Below are positions 911 to 44,333 of a DNA stretch of 44,333 nucleotides, one piece after another. Origin of the DNA: a virus (lineage: Duplodnaviria; Heunggongvirae; Uroviricota; Caudoviricetes); the IMG/VR virus record IMGVR_UViG_2909246061_000002, positions 1-44,333 of that record. One strand, 5' to 3'. The position numbers and the translations under genes were made by a program. Within the stretch, counting starts at the first letter, position 1, and each line of letters starts with the position of its first letter. The notes under the pieces were generated by a model. That model was not told the origin of the DNA. It saw only the letters and a program-made list of their open reading frames with translations, and did no database searches.

Positions 911-1603
911 TTATAGCTCCTTTAATCGAGGCGGTTCTGGTAGAGGCATCCAGTGGGTTACCTCTTTGAGATACAGGTCTTCGCCATCACCGTCATCCCA
1001 AGTGGGATTGCCATCATTAAACCAGTCGCCATATACGCCGACCTGAGTGTTGGGGATGTTTGGTGGGTAGTTGTTTTTAAAGTCAGCTGCTAACACATAG
1101 CATTGTCGCTCTCCCATTTCTGGCATTCGCTCACTACAGCTTATCCAACCATCCGGAGTTACCGGATAGTTGCCGGGTTCTTTAATGTGCAAGCGAGGCT
1201 CACCATCTTTTGGCTCAGGCCACTGGCGCTCCATGTTGATCTTCAATTTATCTTCCATAGCAGCGGTAATTTCAGCATCGCTGATGCCAGCACGGCGCTG
1301 TGCATCCCACAACAGAAACTGCATATCAGCCCACTCGCTAAGATCGTCTGGTTCGGCTGCGGCTTCCAGAGCCTCTTTTGAGAGGTGTTTCAGTGGACCA
1401 ATGGGGCCAACGCAGCCAAATGTGGAGTCAGACCATTTGGCATGCTCGTGGCGAACCCGCTCGCGTTCCAGTGAGGCGAGAGCGATTTTAAATGCTGTAA
1501 GCATGTGTGCTTGATCGTTATCGAGTCCGAACGGTATTTCATCCCGTGCTGACTCAATGCTGGTAATCGTGTTCTGTAACCATTCTTTGGTAAGAGTATT
1601 CAT
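911..1603 (-). CDS. phage protein with N-terminal MazG-like nucleotide pyrophosphohydrolase-like region and C-terminal DUF551-like region
   Basis: ATG at 1603 with AAGGTG RBS; N-terminal EALEAAAE and LSEWADMQFLLWDAQRRAGIS resemble MazG-type metal-binding/helical motifs; C-terminal DGWISCSERMPE resembles DUF551; assignment from recalled motifs only. Confidence 0.55.
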   Translation of the reverse strand: MNTLTKEWLQNTITSIESARDEIPFGLDNDQAHMLTAFKIALASLERERVRHEHAKWSDSTFGCVGPIGPLKHLSKEALEAAAEPDDLSEWADMQFLLWDAQRRAGISDAEITAAMEDKLKINMERQWPEPKDGEPRLHIKEPGNYPVTPDGWISCSERMPEMGERQCYVLAADFKNNYPPNIPNTQVGVYGDWFNDGNPTWDDGDGEDLYLKEVTHWMPLPEPPRLKEL

Positions 1604-1605
1604 AA

Positions 1606-1797
1606 CTATTTCACCTTAATCTCAACATTTCGCAGCTTTAGCTCTACTGGCAAGTCTGACTTTCCTGTTAATGCTAATGCGAGATTTTCAGGAGTAATGA
1701 GAGCTGTTATTGTTTTCCCCATCGCCAGACGAATAATCATTCGTATCTCGCGATCGTCACATGCTCCCGGTCGAACAATTGATATTTGTCCGTTCAT
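1606..1797 (-). CDS. hypothetical small protein, 63 aa
   Basis: Internal ATG at 1797 with strong AAGGAG RBS overlapping the stop of the upstream gene; the longer ORF-track start at 1902 would overlap that gene by about 100 nt. Confidence 0.4.
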   Translation of the reverse strand: MNGQISIVRPGACDDREIRMIIRLAMGKTITALITPENLALALTGKSDLPVELKLRNVEIKVK

Positions 1798-5027: not shown

Positions 5028-5996
5028 TTAGTAGGTTATTTTTGTTGCGAATACTTCGCCTTTTACGATGGCTGTTATGATATTTTTAGCAACATCTTCT
5101 GATGCGCCAACCTTGATAAGGTCAGCAAGTATTTTGTTATTTACTTCTTTCCGGTGAGCTTTATCCTTTGCTCTACGCTCTTCTTCGTCCTTGATTCTTT
5201 TTTCTTCTGCTATTCTGGCTTGCTCTTTTGCTTCAGCCTCGCGCCGGATTCGTTCAGCCTCCTCCTGTGCTTTTCGGCGTTCTGCTTCAATTGCCGCCTG
5301 CTTTTCTCTTTCAGCTCGTTCTGCTGCCTCTTTTGCTTCGCGCAGTGCTCGTTGCTCGGCTTCAATGCGTTCACGCTCTGCACGTTCCGCTGCGGCCTTA
5401 GCTTCTGCTTCTCGCCTTGCTGCTGCTTCAATTTCGGCTTTTGCCTTTGCTTCGGCTTCTGCTCTGGCTTTCTCTTCAGCTTCTCTTTTTAAGCGTTCTT
5501 CATGCTCTCGCTTTTCCTGCTCCGCTTTGAGTCTTGCCTCTTCTCTTTGGCGGTCAAATTCGCGATCCATCAAAATCGCTATTTCATGGTCAGACTCAAT
5601 TTGCTTTGCGAGAGCTTCAGCTGCTGCCTTAGCTTCTTCTTCGGCTTTAATCCGCGCCTGTTCTTCCTCATAATCAGTAAGAGGCTGGCGCGCCTTGGCT
5701 TTCAGTTCATCAAGGCGATCACGCACTGTCTTGCGGTTGGCATCAATTAGCTTTGGAATTTCCTTCAGTTCAGCAACAAGGTCTTTGCCAAGACCATCGA
5801 GATATGTTTTCGTCTGCGCAACTTTATACGCCAGAGAAGCGATCTCCTTTCTGCCCTTTGCCGTTGTGATATCAGGCACAAATGACATAACTTCACGTTC
5901 AACCTTTTGAAGGATTTCTTCAATCTGGTCGGCAGACTGAAATACAGTCATTGCATTTGCTTTTTCAATAACAACTAAATCTGTTACTTCACTCAT
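5028..5996 (-). CDS. coiled-coil E/A/K/R-rich phage protein (DUF1351-like), 322 aa
   Basis: ATG at 5996 with GGAGG RBS (the ORF-track start at 6050 is upstream of the RBS); long charged helical repeats; sits beside the Sak4 module. Confidence 0.6.
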   Translation of the reverse strand: MSEVTDLVVIEKANAMTVFQSADQIEEILQKVEREVMSFVPDITTAKGRKEIASLAYKVAQTKTYLDGLGKDLVAELKEIPKLIDANRKTVRDRLDELKAKARQPLTDYEEEQARIKAEEEAKAAAEALAKQIESDHEIAILMDREFDRQREEARLKAEQEKREHEERLKREAEEKARAEAEAKAKAEIEAAARREAEAKAAAERAERERIEAEQRALREAKEAAERAEREKQAAIEAERRKAQEEAERIRREAEAKEQARIAEEKRIKDEEERRAKDKAHRKEVNNKILADLIKVGASEDVAKNIITAIVKGEVFATKITY

Positions 5997-6169
5997 ATAT
6001 CCTCCGTCAAAAAAATTGCCCTCACACTGGAGGGCAAAGAAGATTTCCAATAATCAGAACAAGTCGGCTCCTGTTTAGTTACGAGCGACATTGCTCCGTG
6101 TATTCACTCGTTGGAATGAATACACAGTGCTGTGTTTATTCTGTTGTTAGTGCCAAAAATAAAGGCCGA

Positions 6170-6862
6170 CTATGCGGACTCGGAAGGAAGTCCAATCATC
6201 TTATTCAAATCTTCTACCCGTAAAGCAGGAAGTGCTGTACTTGCTTTATCTGCTTCTTTTGGTAGCAATTCTTTGCTTTCAGGCCAAACTTCAATAAGTC
6301 GCTTAACTGTTGTGACTGAGTTCAAAGCAGCCCATACATTTGATTCGATATCCTTTTTCTTGGCTTCAAGTTTTTGTTGCAATGCGCAGATTTCATCAAA
6401 CCTTTTTGTTATTTCGTGTTCTGCGTCAAACATGCATTTATCTTTGGTCGGAGTAGGGAGCAATATATCTTCGCCGTTGCCGTCTTTCCCATATGAAAGC
6501 CATCCAACCCTTCTGCCAGATACAGTCAGATAAATTGAAGTAGAACGAACATCGTATGAGTAAAATGAACATCCCATCTTTCCAAGTTCTTCACTTATAG
6601 CTACCAACTTGGATGATAACTGATCCACTTCCTCAGTTTTCTTTTTACCGCCAAACGCAATAACTCTGGCGTCAAGTGCAAGCTGGTTCTTTAACTTTGT
6701 TACTTCTTCAAGTTCAGTGAAAACCCCAGACTTAATTAAAGCGTTACGAGCGATTTCCTCTTTCATTCTCGTAGTTAAGCGGATTGATGACATATTAATT
6801 CCTCTCAAATAAGTGGCTTGCTGCCAAAACAATGAACCATCCGGAAATTCCAGATAGTTCAT
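6170..6862 (-). CDS. hypothetical early-left protein, 230 aa (alternative start 6793 with GAGAGGA RBS)
   Basis: Long ORF; ATGA overlap with upstream ORF at 6859..6862. Confidence 0.5.
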   Translation of the reverse strand: MNYLEFPDGSLFWQQATYLRGINMSSIRLTTRMKEEIARNALIKSGVFTELEEVTKLKNQLALDARVIAFGGKKKTEEVDQLSSKLVAISEELGKMGCSFYSYDVRSTSIYLTVSGRRVGWLSYGKDGNGEDILLPTPTKDKCMFDAEHEITKRFDEICALQQKLEAKKKDIESNVWAALNSVTTVKRLIEVWPESKELLPKEADKASTALPALRVEDLNKMIGLPSESA

Positions 6863-7086: not shown

Positions 7087-7359
7087 TTACCTGGCTGTCA
7101 GTTGTTTTGATTTCCGGTATCCTGCCGCGTAAATGGCTACGTTCGGAAGACAAGTTGAACCTTCATATTTTCTGGTCAACGTTGTCAGAGTTATCACTTC
7201 TGCTCTCATTGCTGGTTTGCGCTTGCATTGCAAGACCACTCGTGAAGGGGTTGGCCTGTGTAGCTTGTCAGAGCTGATCGCCTCCTGACTTTGCAGATTT
7301 GCACGACGAGCTCTACGGCGAGAAGCTGCGGTTCCTTTAAATTCTGTTTTTCTGGACAT
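7087..7359 (-). CDS. N-like transcription antiterminator (arginine-rich motif), 90 aa
   Basis: ATG at 7359 with GGGAGG RBS; N-terminal RRRARRA arginine-rich motif; C-terminal YAAGYRKSKQLTAR resembles what I recall of P22 gp24; directly downstream of a boxA/boxB nut site. Confidence 0.7.
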   Translation of the reverse strand: MSRKTEFKGTAASRRRARRANLQSQEAISSDKLHRPTPSRVVLQCKRKPAMRAEVITLTTLTRKYEGSTCLPNVAIYAAGYRKSKQLTAR

Positions 7360-7457
7360 AGATTCCTCCCGAATAAACTTTGGCGATGCAATCTCGAAGC
7401 CCCTCCTGAGACGGTTGCTTCGGCATTGCATCCCACAGCTTATGTGGTTGGGTGATC

Positions 7458-7814: not shown

Positions 7815-8000
7815 TTACAGAGCAAAGAGATCACGCATTAGGTTGCTGTTCATCTGGTGGTTGAATTGATACGGCTCCAGTTCTTTTTTGATCTCGTTCA
7901 GGTGCTGTTCCGCTTTTCTTGCCAGATTGCGACTTTCTTGGATCTGGCTTTCCAACATTTTGTTGAGAATTTCCATCTCCGGTTGCAGATTCTTCGGCAT
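7815..8000 (-). CDS. small helical protein, 61 aa, overlapping the 3' end of the protease-like gene in another frame
   Basis: ATG at 8000 with AAGAGG RBS 9 nt upstream; protein-like helical sequence; frame opens only 42 nt upstream. Confidence 0.5.
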   Translation of the reverse strand: MPKNLQPEMEILNKMLESQIQESRNLARKAEQHLNEIKKELEPYQFNHQMNSNLMRDLFAL

Positions 8001-8835
8001 TAGTATTGTCCTCTTTATCTTGTGTAGTAAGAGGGAAATCCATCACCCTTGGTTTTCCAAACGTTGGGATTTCACCACTATGAATCTTATCACAGAAAAA
8101 ATTATCGAGTATTTCTGTTATACCTTTAGGACATTCAACACACTTGAAAAGTTCCTTGGCTTCTTTTCTGTCGATAACAAATCCATGTGAAGGATACGAA
8201 GCGATGAGTTTGCTTAACGCCCCTTCTTTTAGACTACTTGGCTTGTCTGCTAACCGTTGACCATAAGTGATAGCAATGCTCATCGCACGCTGATGCTCAC
8301 CAAGTTTTATTGGATCTATCTGAGCAGCCATGGGGGCTATCAATGCCTCTGTAAGTCTGGTTGCGATGTCAGCAGATATTTTAGTGCTTATCTGGTTTTC
8401 GTATTTTATCTGAACAAGGTATGAGTTAAACGCTGAAATAGAGCGCTCCTTCAGTGCATCGAGAGCTGTCATAATGGCTAAACCAGAACTCATCTCACCT
8501 ATTTCATCGTTTTTTTTCAGTTGGATATCTAATGGCCCGAGCTCACCCATGTCACCGATAACAAGTTTATTCGCAGCTATGGCTATTAGTGTACCAGCAC
8601 TTTTGCACGGCCCAACAACTAAAAGTGTTACCGTTTCATAATAGTGCTGGAGAGCCCTACCTATACGATAACCAGCATTAGGATCACCGCCATAAGTAGC
8701 AACACAGAAGATAACATTCTTTTTTAATTCATTTTGTGACTTACGCTTCTTGATTTTATTGGTTAGATCAAGATAACCATCACGATGAATATCGCCTATA
8801 TACACATAAACATCATTATTTTCAATAGTATTCAT
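7831..8835 (-). CDS. Clp-fold (ClpP/SppA-like, SDH-type) serine protease-like protein, 334 aa
   Basis: ClpP/SppA-like motif GDPNAGYRIGRALQ...VVGPCKSAGTLIAIAANKLVIGDMGELG with candidate nucleophile Ser; low-complexity C-terminal tail; AT-rich gene 166 bp downstream of cI on the same strand. Confidence 0.65.
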   Translation of the reverse strand: MNTIENNDVYVYIGDIHRDGYLDLTNKIKKRKSQNELKKNVIFCVATYGGDPNAGYRIGRALQHYYETVTLLVVGPCKSAGTLIAIAANKLVIGDMGELGPLDIQLKKNDEIGEMSSGLAIMTALDALKERSISAFNSYLVQIKYENQISTKISADIATRLTEALIAPMAAQIDPIKLGEHQRAMSIAITYGQRLADKPSSLKEGALSKLIASYPSHGFVIDRKEAKELFKCVECPKGITEILDNFFCDKIHSGEIPTFGKPRVMDFPLTTQDKEDNTNAEESATGDGNSQQNVGKPDPRKSQSGKKSGTAPERDQKRTGAVSIQPPDEQQPNA

Positions 8836-9001: not shown

Positions 9002-9706
9002 TCACGAATTTTTCAGCCACTCCCTTGCCTCGATGTCATCCAGATGGCGAGATTGCTTCAGAATACCAGCCACATACTCCACCTTTGCTACTTGATGATA
9101 AGGCAACGTTATTGGCCTATGGTCCTGGTTGATGCTTGTAAACTGGTATTCTCCGTCTCTGTCATAGCCAAGAACTTTGATCATGTTGTGTCCTTCAACG
9201 GTTCTGACAAACACCTCATCACCCGGGAATACTTTGGTGTTAGGCTCAATGAGTACATATTCTCCTGATTTTATTCTGGGCCACATGCTGTCTCCTTTCA
9301 CACGAAGACCAAAGGCATCTGGATCATCGCTATAAATCTTGAGCCACCCATCGCGCTCTTCGGTCATCTCGATGGCACCATCAACACCAAGAATTGCCTC
9401 ACCAACCACGCGCACTAACCCTTTTCTTACCTGACCGACAAAAGTTAAAGAATCTGAGCATGATGCAATTGGTGTTACATCATGTACCAAATCAAGCCAC
9501 CCATTAGGTAACCCAAGTGCGGCTTCGAATTTTCTTGCTAGTTTATCCCCTATGTTTCGAGTGCTTTTTTCACCGGAGACTTGCGTGAGTTGAGAAGGGC
9601 TAACTCCAAGCTTATCGGCAAAGCTTGCATTAGTGTTACCCGCGATTTTTTTATGCTCATCTAGCAAAAACGCCAGATTCGATTTGCGAATATCTTTGTT
9701 TTCCAT
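9002..9706 (-). CDS. cI: CI-like prophage repressor (HTH plus LexA-type S24 peptidase domain)
   Basis: 234 aa; N-terminal HTH region, C-terminal S24-like autocleavage domain (GDSMWPRIKSGEYVLIEP); divergent from a cro-like gene. Confidence 0.85.
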   Translation of the reverse strand: MENKDIRKSNLAFLLDEHKKIAGNTNASFADKLGVSPSQLTQVSGEKSTRNIGDKLARKFEAALGLPNGWLDLVHDVTPIASCSDSLTFVGQVRKGLVRVVGEAILGVDGAIEMTEERDGWLKIYSDDPDAFGLRVKGDSMWPRIKSGEYVLIEPNTKVFPGDEVFVRTVEGHNMIKVLGYDRDGEYQFTSINQDHRPITLPYHQVAKVEYVAGILKQSRHLDDIEAREWLKNS

Positions 9707-41931: not shown

Positions 41932-43086
41932 TCACTCCACCTTTTCATCAAGCCAGTCCGCCCACCATTGCATCATTTCTCTGCGCTTATCGAGATACTG
42001 AGCATGGTTGTAAATCCCGCGCACAGATCCGCCGTTGGCATGTGCCAGTTGCACTTCAATAGCGTCAGCAGGCCATTCGTGCTCGTTCATAATCGTGCTG
42101 AATTCATGCCTGAATCCGTGACCGCTTTCCAGACCTTCATAGCCGATTTGTTTGATCACAAGCAGTACCGCATTCTCGCAGATTGGCTTCTTCTTATCGT
42201 TGCGCCCGGCAAAAACAAACTCTGATACTGGTTTGGTGATGGAGCTTAACGTAGTGAGAAGTTCAACCACCTGGTCTGACATCGGGGCCACATGAATTTT
42301 GCGTCCTTTCATCACACTGGCGTCGATGGTGATAATCCTGTTTTCAAAATCGACGTTCTTCCATAGCATGGAACGAAGCTCTTTCGTTCTTAGGGCAGTG
42401 TAGCGTAAAACCTTGGTGGCAATGAGCGATACGATACTTCCTGAAAATGTTGCCAGTGCTTTATTGAATGCCGGGATCTGGTCTGCAGGAAGAAACGGGA
42501 AGTTCTTCTTGCGGTACCCCTTCATGGCGTCAGCAAGGTCAGGTGCCGGGTTATATTTAGCCCTGCCGGTGACAATAGCGTAACGGAAAACCTCGCCGCA
42601 TCTTCTGCGGGCTTTGTTGGCTCGCTCCATTGCACCGCGATCTTCAAATCTGCGGATTACTTCCAGCAGTTGCATCGGCTCAATATCCTGAATCTCAAGA
42701 CCGCCGATGATGGGTAAAATGTCGTCATCAAACATTTTGGCAAGTTCAGTTGCATAGCCTACTGACCAGACTTGCTTCTTGTGCTCGTACCATTCCTTGT
42801 AAATGGCACTAAAGGAATTGTTGTTAGACGAAGCCTTTTTCGCTTTTACCGGATCGATGCCAACCGAGATGTCTTTCCTCGCGGTCCATGCTTTATCTCT
42901 TGCCTCCTGCAAAGTCATTAGCGGATATTTTCCGACGGTCAGGATTTTCTCCTTACCGTCAATCTTGTAGCGAAGCTGCCATACCTTTTTCCCTGACACA
43001 GGGACATAAAGGTACAGGCCATTACCATCGAGTAGGCGGTATGGTTTTTCTTTCGGCTTTGCTGCTTCAATCTGCTTAACGGTGAG
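41932..43086 (-). CDS. intS: tyrosine integrase, 385 aa
   Basis: ATG at 43086 (the ORF-track GTG at 43125 is upstream); N-terminal arm-binding domain and C-terminal catalytic domain with HxxR; adjacent to argW; sequence and length match my recollection of K-12 IntS. Confidence 0.8.
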   Translation of the reverse strand, partial: LTVKQIEAAKPKEKPYRLLDGNGLYLYVPVSGKKVWQLRYKIDGKEKILTVGKYPLMTLQEARDKAWTARKDISVGIDPVKAKKASSNNNSFSAIYKEWYEHKKQVWSVGYATELAKMFDDDILPIIGGLEIQDIEPMQLLEVIRRFEDRGAMERANKARRRCGEVFRYAIVTGRAKYNPAPDLADAMKGYRKKNFPFLPADQIPAFNKALATFSGSIVSLIATKVLRYTALRTKELRSMLWKNVDFENRIITIDASVMKGRKIHVAPMSDQVVELLTTLSSITKPVSEFVFAGRNDKKKPICENAVLLVIKQIGYEGLESGHGFRHEFSTIMNEHEWPADAIEVQLAHANGGSVRGIYNHAQYLDKRREMMQWWADWLDEKVE

Positions 43087-43250
43087 CATGGGTAAAAATC
43101 CGGTGGGTAAAATTATTTTATCCACTTTTTACCCGTCATGGAGTGCGGCTGTCAACGATCTGAAGCGGACCATGACGAACTGTGAATCTACGGAAGGCTT
43201 GATATTCAGGGGATTTTGCGGACTGGTACGGATGGGAGCGAACTGATAAA

Positions 43251-43325
43251 TGGTGTCCCCTGCAGGAATCGAACCTGCAATTAGCCCTTAGGAGGGGCTC
43301 GTTATATCCATTTAACTAAGAGGAC
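43251..43325 (-). tRNA. argW: tRNA-Arg (anticodon CCU)
   Basis: Minus strand reads GTCCTCTTAGTTAAATGGATATAACGAGCCCCTCCTAAGGGCTAATTGCAGGTTCGATTCCTGCAGGGGACACCA; cloverleaf with CCT anticodon and encoded CCA. Confidence 0.9.
43265..43280. repeat. 16-bp att core within the argW T-arm (copy of 221..236)
   Basis: Exact repeat of 221..236; lies between the tRNA 5' part and the integrase-proximal tRNA 3' end. Confidence 0.5.
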
Positions 43326-43400: not shown

Positions 43401-44333
43401 TTATGCCGGGTTTTTATAATTTTTCTTAATGTTTTCCGCACGTTCTGCTTTTTGGCGTGCTTCTGCTTTACGCTTATTGCTCATGTCGTTACGAATCTGT
43501 GCATGACTCATTAACGCGAAGATAAAGGTGCCGCCGCAGATGTTCCCCGCTAAAGTAGGTAGTGCGAAGGGCCAGATGAAATCGCTCCAGTGCAGCGTAC
43601 CGTTAAACACCAGATAGAGGATTTCAACAGAACCGACCACGATATGGGTGGTGTCACCCAGGGCAATAAGCCAGGTCATCAATATAATCACCACAATCTT
43701 TGCCGCACCCGCTGCAGGAAACATCCAAACCATAGTGGCGATCAGCCAGCCGGAAATGATCGCGTTGGCAAACATCTCGCTGGGGGTGTTCTTCATCACA
43801 TCCATGCCGATTTTGACAAATGCATCGCGAGTTTCTTCATTGAAGATAGGCATATATTCAAATGCCCACGCCGCAATACCTGTCCCGAGAATATTACCCA
43901 GCAGCACGACGCCCCATAACCGTATAAGTAAGCCGAAGTTGCTCATTGTCGGTTTTTGCATGACGGGTAGTACCGCAGTCACGGTATTTTCGGTAAATAA
44001 TTGCTGGCGGGCCATAATGACGATAATAAAACCAAAGGTATAACCGAGATTCTCCAGCAAGAAGCTGCCCGGCACACCTTCCAGTTCGACATGAAATATC
44101 CCTTTTGCCAGTAACGAAGCGCCCATCGACAGACCCGCCGCAATGGCTGACCACAGTAGCGCCATTGCGTCGCGTTCCAGCTCTTTTTCACCATCCTGGC
44201 GGATATGCTCATGAATTGCCATCGCCCGGGAGGGGAGTCGGTCTTCATCTATTTCTATTTTTTTGCCGCGCTCTTTTTCTTCGCTCTCAACTTCAATTTC
44301 GTCGCTGTGTTGATCAATTTTGTCGTTGTCCAT
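43401..44333 (-). CDS. yfdC: formate/nitrite transporter (FNT) family inner membrane protein
   Basis: 310 aa; multiple TM segments; chromosomal neighbour of argW in E. coli K-12 as I recall; start codon at the window end. Confidence 0.75.
   Translation of the reverse strand: MDNDKIDQHSDEIEVESEEKERGKKIEIDEDRLPSRAMAIHEHIRQDGEKELERDAMALLWSAIAAGLSMGASLLAKGIFHVELEGVPGSFLLENLGYTFGFIIVIMARQQLFTENTVTAVLPVMQKPTMSNFGLLIRLWGVVLLGNILGTGIAAWAFEYMPIFNEETRDAFVKIGMDVMKNTPSEMFANAIISGWLIATMVWMFPAAGAAKIVVIILMTWLIALGDTTHIVVGSVEILYLVFNGTLHWSDFIWPFALPTLAGNICGGTFIFALMSHAQIRNDMSNKRKAEARQKAERAENIKKNYKNPA

Follow-up and report, generated by a model that had tools for sequence, protein, structure and literature searches.

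A predicted MazZ-type pyrophosphohydrolase domain as the central cassette of an EaA-family protein in a KplE1/CPS-53-type prophage

The EaA gene and its central enzyme domain

The window analysed here is the complete stretch of 44,333 nucleotides (positions 1 to 44,333) of the IMG/VR virus record IMGVR_UViG_2909246061_000002 (Caudoviricetes), in which a preliminary description, made from the letters alone, had pointed to a 230-amino-acid (aa) protein encoded at 911-1603 and had proposed a MazG/MazZ-type nucleotide pyrophosphohydrolase domain fused to DUF551. The open reading frame (ORF) proved to be real, with an ATG start and 230 codons on the minus strand and its stop codon at 911-913. The ORF list and Pfam together identify it as a complete coding sequence (911..1603) of the DUF550-DUF551 type within the EaA family, and it will be referred to as the EaA gene. 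Pfam detected two domains in the protein, far above the gathering cut-offs of 23 bits for PF04447 and 22 bits for PF04448. PF04447, the dATP/dGTP pyrophosphohydrolase domain formerly called DUF550 (MazZ family), covers residues 51-145 (1169..1453, minus strand) with 141.9 bits (E=7.7e-42) and profile positions 2-96 of 97. PF04448 (DUF551) follows at residues 152-225 (929..1150, minus strand) with 73.3 bits (E=2.9e-20) and contains the C-terminus 'WISCSERMP...VTHWMPLPEPP', as had been proposed. No family was reported in an NCBIfam scan of the protein. The motifs quoted for the hydrolase domain are indeed present ('...SKEALEAAAEPDDLSEWADMQFLLWDAQRRAGISD...' at residues 75-109); they are, however, central and not N-terminal, because residues 1 to approximately 45 form a separate leader module.

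The central domain has the MazG-HisE-type helical bundle of the all-alpha nucleoside triphosphate (NTP) pyrophosphohydrolase superfamily, and two methods returned S-2L MazZ (PDB 7ODY) as its best structural match, so that the lack of a MazG-like fold, named beforehand as grounds for giving up the assignment, was not observed. The acidic metal motif of this superfamily (ExxE/ExxD, with 12-28 residues between the motif starts) is represented by E77-A-L-E80 and E90-W-A-D93, and the alignment to 7ODY together with conservation predicts metal binding by E77-x-x-E80 ...(9)... E90-x-x-D93 (1325..1375, minus strand). In S-2L MazZ, Mn2+ is bound by E35, E38, E50 and D53, R83 is the transition-state residue, K76, N80 and W85 belong to the pocket, D60 reads the guanine 2-amino group, and a MazZ-specific C-terminal beta-hairpin (R94/H95) completes the pocket of the neighbouring subunit (PMC8342488). 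The HMMER alignment to 7ODY placed E77, E80, E90 and D93 on the four Mn2+ ligands in this order. In the alignments R126 corresponds to R83, K119 to K76, N123 to N80, W128 to W85, D100 to D60, and R137/H139 to R94/H95. The last pair lies in 'QWPEPKDGEPRLHI' (residues 127-140; 1184..1225, minus strand), a conserved stretch that extends the enzyme domain at its C-terminus, which was delimited by alignments and conservation and would form the equivalent of the MazZ-specific hairpin, its R-x-H segment being present in the sequence. Thus, the Pfam profile and the mapping of the catalytic residues onto S-2L MazZ agree on the proposed fusion of a MazG/MazZ-type domain to DUF551.

S-2L MazZ, a (d)GTP-specific NTP pyrophosphohydrolase of the MazG-HisE fold, is nevertheless a distant relative with 20-28% identity to the EaA enzyme domain. 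It is a single-domain protein of 105 aa acting upstream of PurZ in its pathway, whereas in the EaA protein the enzyme domain is preceded by a helical leader of approximately 45 aa and followed by DUF551. The EaA enzyme domain does not retain N20 or the other base-contacting residues found only in S-2L. Comparison by hhalign gave E=1.7e-5 to S-2L MazZ and E=3e-6 to the enzyme of Acinetobacter phage SH-Ab 15497.

The mapped catalytic and pocket residues are conserved in 90% or more of 150 representatives of clusters formed at 50% identity, and they were invariant in all 81 related loci (81/81). Among 38 distinct nucleotide versions the ratio of nonsynonymous to synonymous substitutions (dN/dS) for the enzyme core was approximately 0.10, and no disrupted copy was found. 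The enzyme domain is therefore under strong purifying selection.

Mosaic architecture and distribution of the EaA family

The leader comprises residues 1 to approximately 39 or 45 (1487..1603, minus strand, for the shorter extent) and was defined by PHROG matches, BLASTP and an AlphaFold2 (AF2) model, in which a helix at residues 6-22 and the start of a second one at residues 29-62 were predicted with local confidence (pLDDT) values of 89-96. PHROG families 660/5117/3323/60 match residues 1-56 of the EaA protein and likewise the N-termini of HK620 hkaE, Min27 ORF05 and Salmonella phage EaA. A BLASTP comparison with the latter aligned the leader and DUF551, and a mosaic breakpoint is located near residue 39. 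At the other end of the central cassette the linker 'KEPGNYPVTPD' (1151..1183, minus strand) provides the junction to DUF551. This conserved linker ('KEPGNSPVTPDGW') precedes DUF551 even when the upstream domains are unrelated and would thus be a probable recombination joint of the mosaic.

The predicted beta-rich DUF551 is built from two anchors, W-I-x-C-S-E-R-M-P and V-T-H-W-M-P-L-P, flanking an acidic hypervariable core of 55 aa; W153, P161, W218 and P222 are invariant columns of the DUF551 alignment. In an enterobacterial sample (929-1150 was compared with the DUF551 segments of homologues P0121-P0386), the core occurred in at least 18 mutually unalignable types of 33-65 aa, mostly acidic with a median isoelectric point of 4.3. 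DUF551 is also found as a stand-alone domain in many prophage proteins of 76-170 aa. AF2 modelling of DUF551 alone reached a pLDDT of 50.7 (102-sequence alignment), which was too poor for a fold search, and the DUF551 part of the full-length model had pLDDT values of 50-76 with few beta-strands. Searching PDB sequences with a DUF551 profile yielded only chance matches (E~0.2), for example 'HWQPLP' in glyoxylate reductase. Since it is portable and has an acidic, variable core, DUF551 is most plausibly a separate module serving as a protein-binding or targeting domain.

The modules are evidently exchanged among related proteins. In 105 of the 120 closest homologues the DUF550 and DUF551 parts are at least 90% identical while the N-terminal leader is different, and among the 150 distant representatives the three modules were found in most combinations. 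Pfam detected DUF550 in 138 of these representatives and DUF551 in 50, with Ead_Ea22 or Lar as occasional partners; roughly 100 of the 138 DUF550-containing proteins lack DUF551. The EaA protein shows all features of its family, namely a gene in the ea-region slot between the recombination and Ead/Ea22 genes and xis/torI, the shared N-terminal leader and a C-terminal DUF551. P22 eaA, HK620 hkaE and Min27 ORF05 have the slot (from the Ead/Ea22-like gene to xis/torI), the leader, the linker and DUF551 in common with it but carry other, unannotated central segments without DUF550; EaA relatives with unrelated central segments were compared to 911-1603 at L001:2065-2598, L003:1414-2037 and L004:1501-2169. 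Salmonella phage EaA, too, ends in DUF551 and has another central segment without DUF550. As P22 eaA, HK620 hkaE and Min27 ORF05 carry other segments at this position, the enzyme cassette is an optional insert. Judged from such comparisons, EaA is best described as a scaffold of leader and DUF551 with a swappable central cassette, DUF550 being one such cassette.

NCBI and UniRef already list an identical protein (P0001) under the name 'DUF550 / dATP/dGTP pyrophosphohydrolase domain-containing protein', and RefSeq gives similar E. coli DNA the same annotation name. The protein, both domains and their fusion are thus already contained in Pfam, RefSeq and UniProt, and the DUF550-DUF551 combination ranks with the most common architectures of enterobacterial prophages. 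An exhaustive search yielded 4,392 clusters (50% identity) at E<=1e-3. DNA similar to part of the gene was detected in 2,559 of 5,426 complete E. coli genomes (47%), in up to nine places per genome, whereas only 47 of the complete genomes contain this exact mosaic along 80% or more of its length. Stand-alone DUF550 proteins are common in virulent Klebsiella Webervirus and are present in mycobacteriophages. The gene context in Webervirus and mycobacteriophage Kostya gave no clue; the neighbours are small hypothetical genes in one case and replication genes in the other. Some entries of the family (P0053, P0114, P0298, P0348) carry spurious legacy names such as 'dTDP-6-deoxy-L-hexose 3-O-methyltransferase' or 'valyl-tRNA synthetase'.

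Operon and prophage setting

The EaA gene is preceded by a Shine-Dalgarno-like AAGGTG (1612..1617, minus strand), which was read from the sequence 8 nucleotides (nt) 5' of the ATG. The stop codon (1606-1608) of an upstream ORF of 63 codons ends 2 nt ahead of this ATG, a spacing that suggests translational coupling of the EaA gene within an operon. A crude consensus scan found no sigma-70-like promoter on the minus strand near the gene, and an own promoter allowing expression in the lysogen was set aside on this basis.

The neighbouring genes, identified by Pfam searches with the neighbouring proteins of the window, support the proposed location in the early-left (P_L) operon, as N, kil, abc2, an Ead/Ea22-like gene, the EaA gene and torI are all encoded on the same strand downstream of a cI-like repressor gene. 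The order on the minus strand starts with the genes for the cI-like S24 repressor (9002-9706) and N (7087-7431), followed by Nmad5 (6170-6862; 230 aa, PF18757, E=5e-72), which lies between N and kil, an adjoining ORF of approximately 320-340 aa (340 aa in the window; 5028-6050, phrog_1376/21365, no Pfam match), Kil, a Sak4-like ATPase and a protein similar to single-stranded DNA-binding proteins. It continues with the anti-RecBCD protein Abc2, DUF2737, a 166-aa ORF (2320-2820), the Ead/Ea22-like gene, the 63-aa ORF and the EaA gene, and ends with an ea8.5-like protein, an EaG-like ORF and TorI (1-201) at the left end of the window. The left 6 kb of the window are in pieces approximately 96% identical to HK620, other P22-like phages and many Shiga toxin (Stx) phages, and by synteny the EaA gene sits in the distal 'ea' accessory region of P_L, in the slot of HK620 hkaE and P22 eaA. 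Genes located that far along P_L in lambda and P22 are N-dependent delayed-early genes. With N approximately 5.5 kb upstream and the distal end of P_L close by, the EaA gene would by analogy also be expressed as an N-dependent delayed-early gene. The preliminary description had expected expression immediately after induction; its assignment to the early-left operon is supported, but 'immediately' is slightly too strong.

The window represents a KplE1/CPS-53-type (HK620/CPS-53-like lambdoid) prophage integrated at argW. This is concluded because the TorI protein is 100% identical to that of E. coli K-12 and because the right end of the window contains, on the minus strand, an integrase gene (41932-43125), tRNA-Arg(CCT) (argW; 43251-43325) and the host formate/nitrite-transporter gene (yfdC-like; 43401-44333). 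In HK620, int and the gene for the recombination directionality factor are likewise located at opposite prophage ends. K-12 CPS-53 (KplE1) is a prophage of the same type, sharing the identical TorI and the integration site at argW. It encodes the DUF551 protein YfdS a few genes upstream of torI, and yfdS overlaps yfdR, the gene for an HD-domain 5'-deoxynucleotidase. When yfdQRS/T are overexpressed, the initiation of replication is inhibited (PMC4776307). The K-12 hydrolase YfdR, however, has an HD and not a MazG fold and is a protein separate from DUF551, and the DUF551 of YfdS has diverged strongly (73% probability in hhalign, BLASTP without similarity). YfdR/YfdS was considered as an analogous split system and, owing to this divergence, was kept as a weak lead only. 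The N-terminal ~45 residues of YfdS (L006:4512-4874) recur almost unchanged at the N-terminus of the 166-aa ORF in the window, which points to a further case of module shuffling among genes of the ea region.

Three terminator-like hairpins with T-runs were observed on the minus strand at 446-496 and 250-269, downstream of the ea8.5-like and EaG-like ORFs; in total, eight terminator-like sites were counted in 3.4 kb, with 2.7 expected from shuffles. Between N and the cI-like repressor gene, 7831-8835 (minus strand) encodes a 334-aa protein with weak similarity to ClpP/SDH-type serine proteases (phrog_21683, E=4e-172). It is missing from all 55 related loci examined and could be a moron or exclusion gene of the immunity region.

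To look for functional partners, co-occurrence was evaluated in 80 related viral loci, 55 of which had at least 6 kb of upstream sequence, and no gene was tightly linked to DUF550 among these 55. The commonest companions were DUF551 (30/55) and the Ead/Ea22-like gene (24/55). Nmad5 occurred alongside DUF550 in only two of the 55 loci and was ruled out as its functional partner by this co-occurrence. The function of Nmad5 is only predicted, and point mutations in Dhillonvirus nmad5 lead to escape from the Tmn defence system (PMC11846954). The ORF of approximately 320-340 aa beside Nmad5 was present in only 3/55 loci, and for this reason the two may form an accessory module of two genes travelling together. 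PADLOC returned no matches for the EaA protein or its four neighbours.

Enzymes of the MazZ family that supply dGMP to PurZ are co-encoded with PurZ, DatZ and usually DpoZ in a Z cluster. None of the three was found in the whole window by tblastn with the SH-Ab 15497 proteins, which gave chance matches only (best E=0.15), and assignment of the EaA enzyme to a Z-cluster MazZ was rejected. Because these three genes are absent, the predicted EaA enzyme is an orphan of the MazZ-like type, outside any Z-genome pathway.

Proposed activity and possible roles

The mechanism proposed here is modelled on two homologues, S-2L MazZ and the DUF550 enzyme of SH-Ab 15497. With a probability of roughly 0.7, the central cassette would be catalytically active, a metal-dependent MazZ-type enzyme that removes pyrophosphate from purine (d)NTPs, functioning as a dimer or tetramer and providing a dispensable accessory function expressed from P_L. 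The gene would be transcribed after induction or infection as a distal, non-essential gene of P_L. The helical domains of its product would pair to a dimer or tetramer, in which E77, E80, E90 and D93 would bind two or three Mg2+/Mn2+ ions. The pocket would be closed by K119, N123, R126 and W128 together with the C-terminal R137/H139 segment of the partner subunit, and D100 would occupy the position of MazZ D60, the reader of the guanine 2-amino group. The substrate would be a purine (d)NTP, with dGTP/GTP as the most likely and dATP as a possible one, and would be converted to the monophosphate and pyrophosphate. As PurZ, DatZ and DpoZ are absent, the enzyme does not feed a Z-base pathway and would modify the purine nucleotide pool on its own.

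PF04447 owes its functional name to an enzyme of Acinetobacter phage SH-Ab 15497 with the architecture DUF5664-DUF550. According to the citations in PMC12884076 and PMC8342488, this enzyme forms dGMP/dAMP from dGTP/dATP and thereby supplies PurZ in the synthesis of 2-aminoadenine (Z) genomes. This MazZ belongs to the same Pfam family and shares with the EaA enzyme the ExxE...ExxD tetrad, the 'INxxRxW' helix and an Asp at the D60-equivalent position. It differs in possessing its own N-terminal DUF5664 in place of the EaA leader, in lacking DUF551 and in being encoded between PurZ and DatZ in a Z-genome cluster. For the DUF550 proteins of Z-phages a separate monophyletic clade is reported (PMC12884076). 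By their profile scores, the lambdoid proteins are the core of PF04447 and the characterised SH-Ab 15497 enzyme is peripheral. The case for catalysis is thus strong, but that for a particular substrate is weaker.

Several observations weigh against the proposed activity. The SH-Ab 15497 MazZ (L002:32865-34022) scores only 33 bits against PF04447, compared to approximately 140 bits for the lambdoid proteins, and is 40% identical to the EaA protein over a mere 42 residues, so that the Pfam name has been carried over from a peripheral member to the family core. HMMER similarity to the sole solved relative, S-2L MazZ, is weak (E=0.2-0.7). The gap between the motif halves was placed differently by phmmer and hhalign; this local ambiguity of register is fixed by the [K/E/H]-E-x-x-E pattern common to the EaA enzyme and both MazZ proteins. 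In the AF2 monomer the two strands of the C-terminal hairpin were not formed (pLDDT 64-85 in that segment). Substrate specificity is not readable from the sequence: SH-Ab 15497 MazZ, for which activity on dATP as well as dGTP is reported, likewise has the equivalent of D100. Furthermore, a literature search found no enzymology or genetics of lambdoid DUF550 or EaA proteins, including P22 EaA, and depletion of dGTP would offer no obvious gain to a phage replicating canonical DNA.

Among the candidate roles in a phage with ordinary DNA our belief is highest for trimming or rebalancing of the canonical purine (d)NTP pool, and it falls from there over the sanitising of damaged purine dNTPs and the hydrolysis of (p)ppGpp to the destruction of immune nucleotides. 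A house-cleaning enzyme preferring damaged or non-canonical purines (8-oxo-dGTP, 2-OH-dATP, dITP, dXTP) would ensure faithful phage replication in a host under SOS or oxidative stress. We regard this as unlikely, since the closest characterised relatives, the MazZ proteins of S-2L and SH-Ab 15497, use canonical dGTP/dATP and since the gene is dispensable and patchy, with unrelated cassettes taking its place in HK620, Min27 and others. By degrading (p)ppGpp the enzyme would dampen the stringent response as well as abortive infection mediated by toxins and so favour lytic growth after induction. A precedent exists in Atd1 of Pectobacterium phage PcCB7V, which hydrolyses ppGpp and protects against TIR-STING toxicity (bioRxiv 10.1101/2022.06.09.495361), a phage enzyme of the all-alpha NTP pyrophosphohydrolase superfamily that acts on a guanine nucleotide in anti-defence, and the conserved D100 would fit a guanine nucleotide substrate. 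Yet Atd1, which is described as a canonical MazG catalytic domain, was aligned with canonical bacterial MazG and not with DUF550 (bioRxiv 10.1101/2022.06.09.495361), the tight pocket in which S-2L MazZ holds its nucleoside puts the fit of a 3'-diphosphate in question, and neither PADLOC nor the 55 related loci revealed genetic linkage to defence or anti-defence genes. An alarmone hydrolase therefore appears improbable. Still less probable is an anti-defence enzyme destroying triphosphate immune nucleotides, for example ddhGTP produced by viperins or dITP acting as the signal in base-modification signalling systems. This idea follows from logic only, as the family cleaves purine (d)NTPs and a preprint describes dITP-based immune signalling (bioRxiv 10.1101/2024.12.20.629578). 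It would suit a gene in the ea region near int/xis, a hotspot of accessory genes, in an operon that also contains the anti-RecBCD gene abc2. No PADLOC matches or conserved neighbours in the vicinity, however, hinted at an anti-defence island, and a distribution over 47% of E. coli genomes, often in multiple copies, exceeds what would be expected of a gene directed against one specific system.

Two further explanations are essentially excluded. T4 dCTPase supplies a dNMP to a hydroxymethylase, and in the same manner the EaA enzyme might deliver a dNMP to a modifying enzyme, as MazZ does for PurZ, with Nmad5 as a possible partner. The supply of dGMP to PurZ is the only proven role of the family, and the Nmad5 gene lies 4.6 kb upstream in the same operon. 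Nevertheless, the chance-level matches to PurZ, DatZ and DpoZ in the window, the rare joint occurrence with Nmad5 and the reportedly separate clade of Z-phage DUF550 proteins (PMC12884076) leave hardly any room for a component of base substitution or DNA modification. Scarcely more credible is an inert scaffold, in which the MazG-like bundle would be an oligomerisation platform presenting DUF551. The interchangeability of the central cassette with unrelated sequences in other EaA proteins would be compatible with this, whereas the four (nearly) invariant acidic ligands and pocket residues, the low dN/dS and the frequent occurrence of DUF550 without DUF551 argue against it.

The preliminary description had also named the protein a candidate anti-defence or host-takeover factor. 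Such a role is a conjecture which is neither supported nor refuted by the present data. In its broadest form, orphan MazZ-like enzymes would be host-takeover or anti-defence effectors that cleave a guanine-based signal or antiviral nucleotide ((p)ppGpp, ddhGTP, dITP), with DUF551 docking the interchangeable cassettes onto a host or phage target; we consider this speculative and about as unlikely as the house-cleaning function.

As an annotation, the DUF550-DUF551 protein adds little new, since it is a catalogued and extremely common prophage protein. Thousands of lambdoid proteins, however, bear an enzymatic name that goes back to a distantly related enzyme from a Z-genome phage, and these orphan enzymes are strongly selected yet lack a PurZ partner. 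As a portable module whose hypervariable core resembles a cassette, DUF551 is very widespread, and the gene family is present in roughly half of the E. coli genomes.

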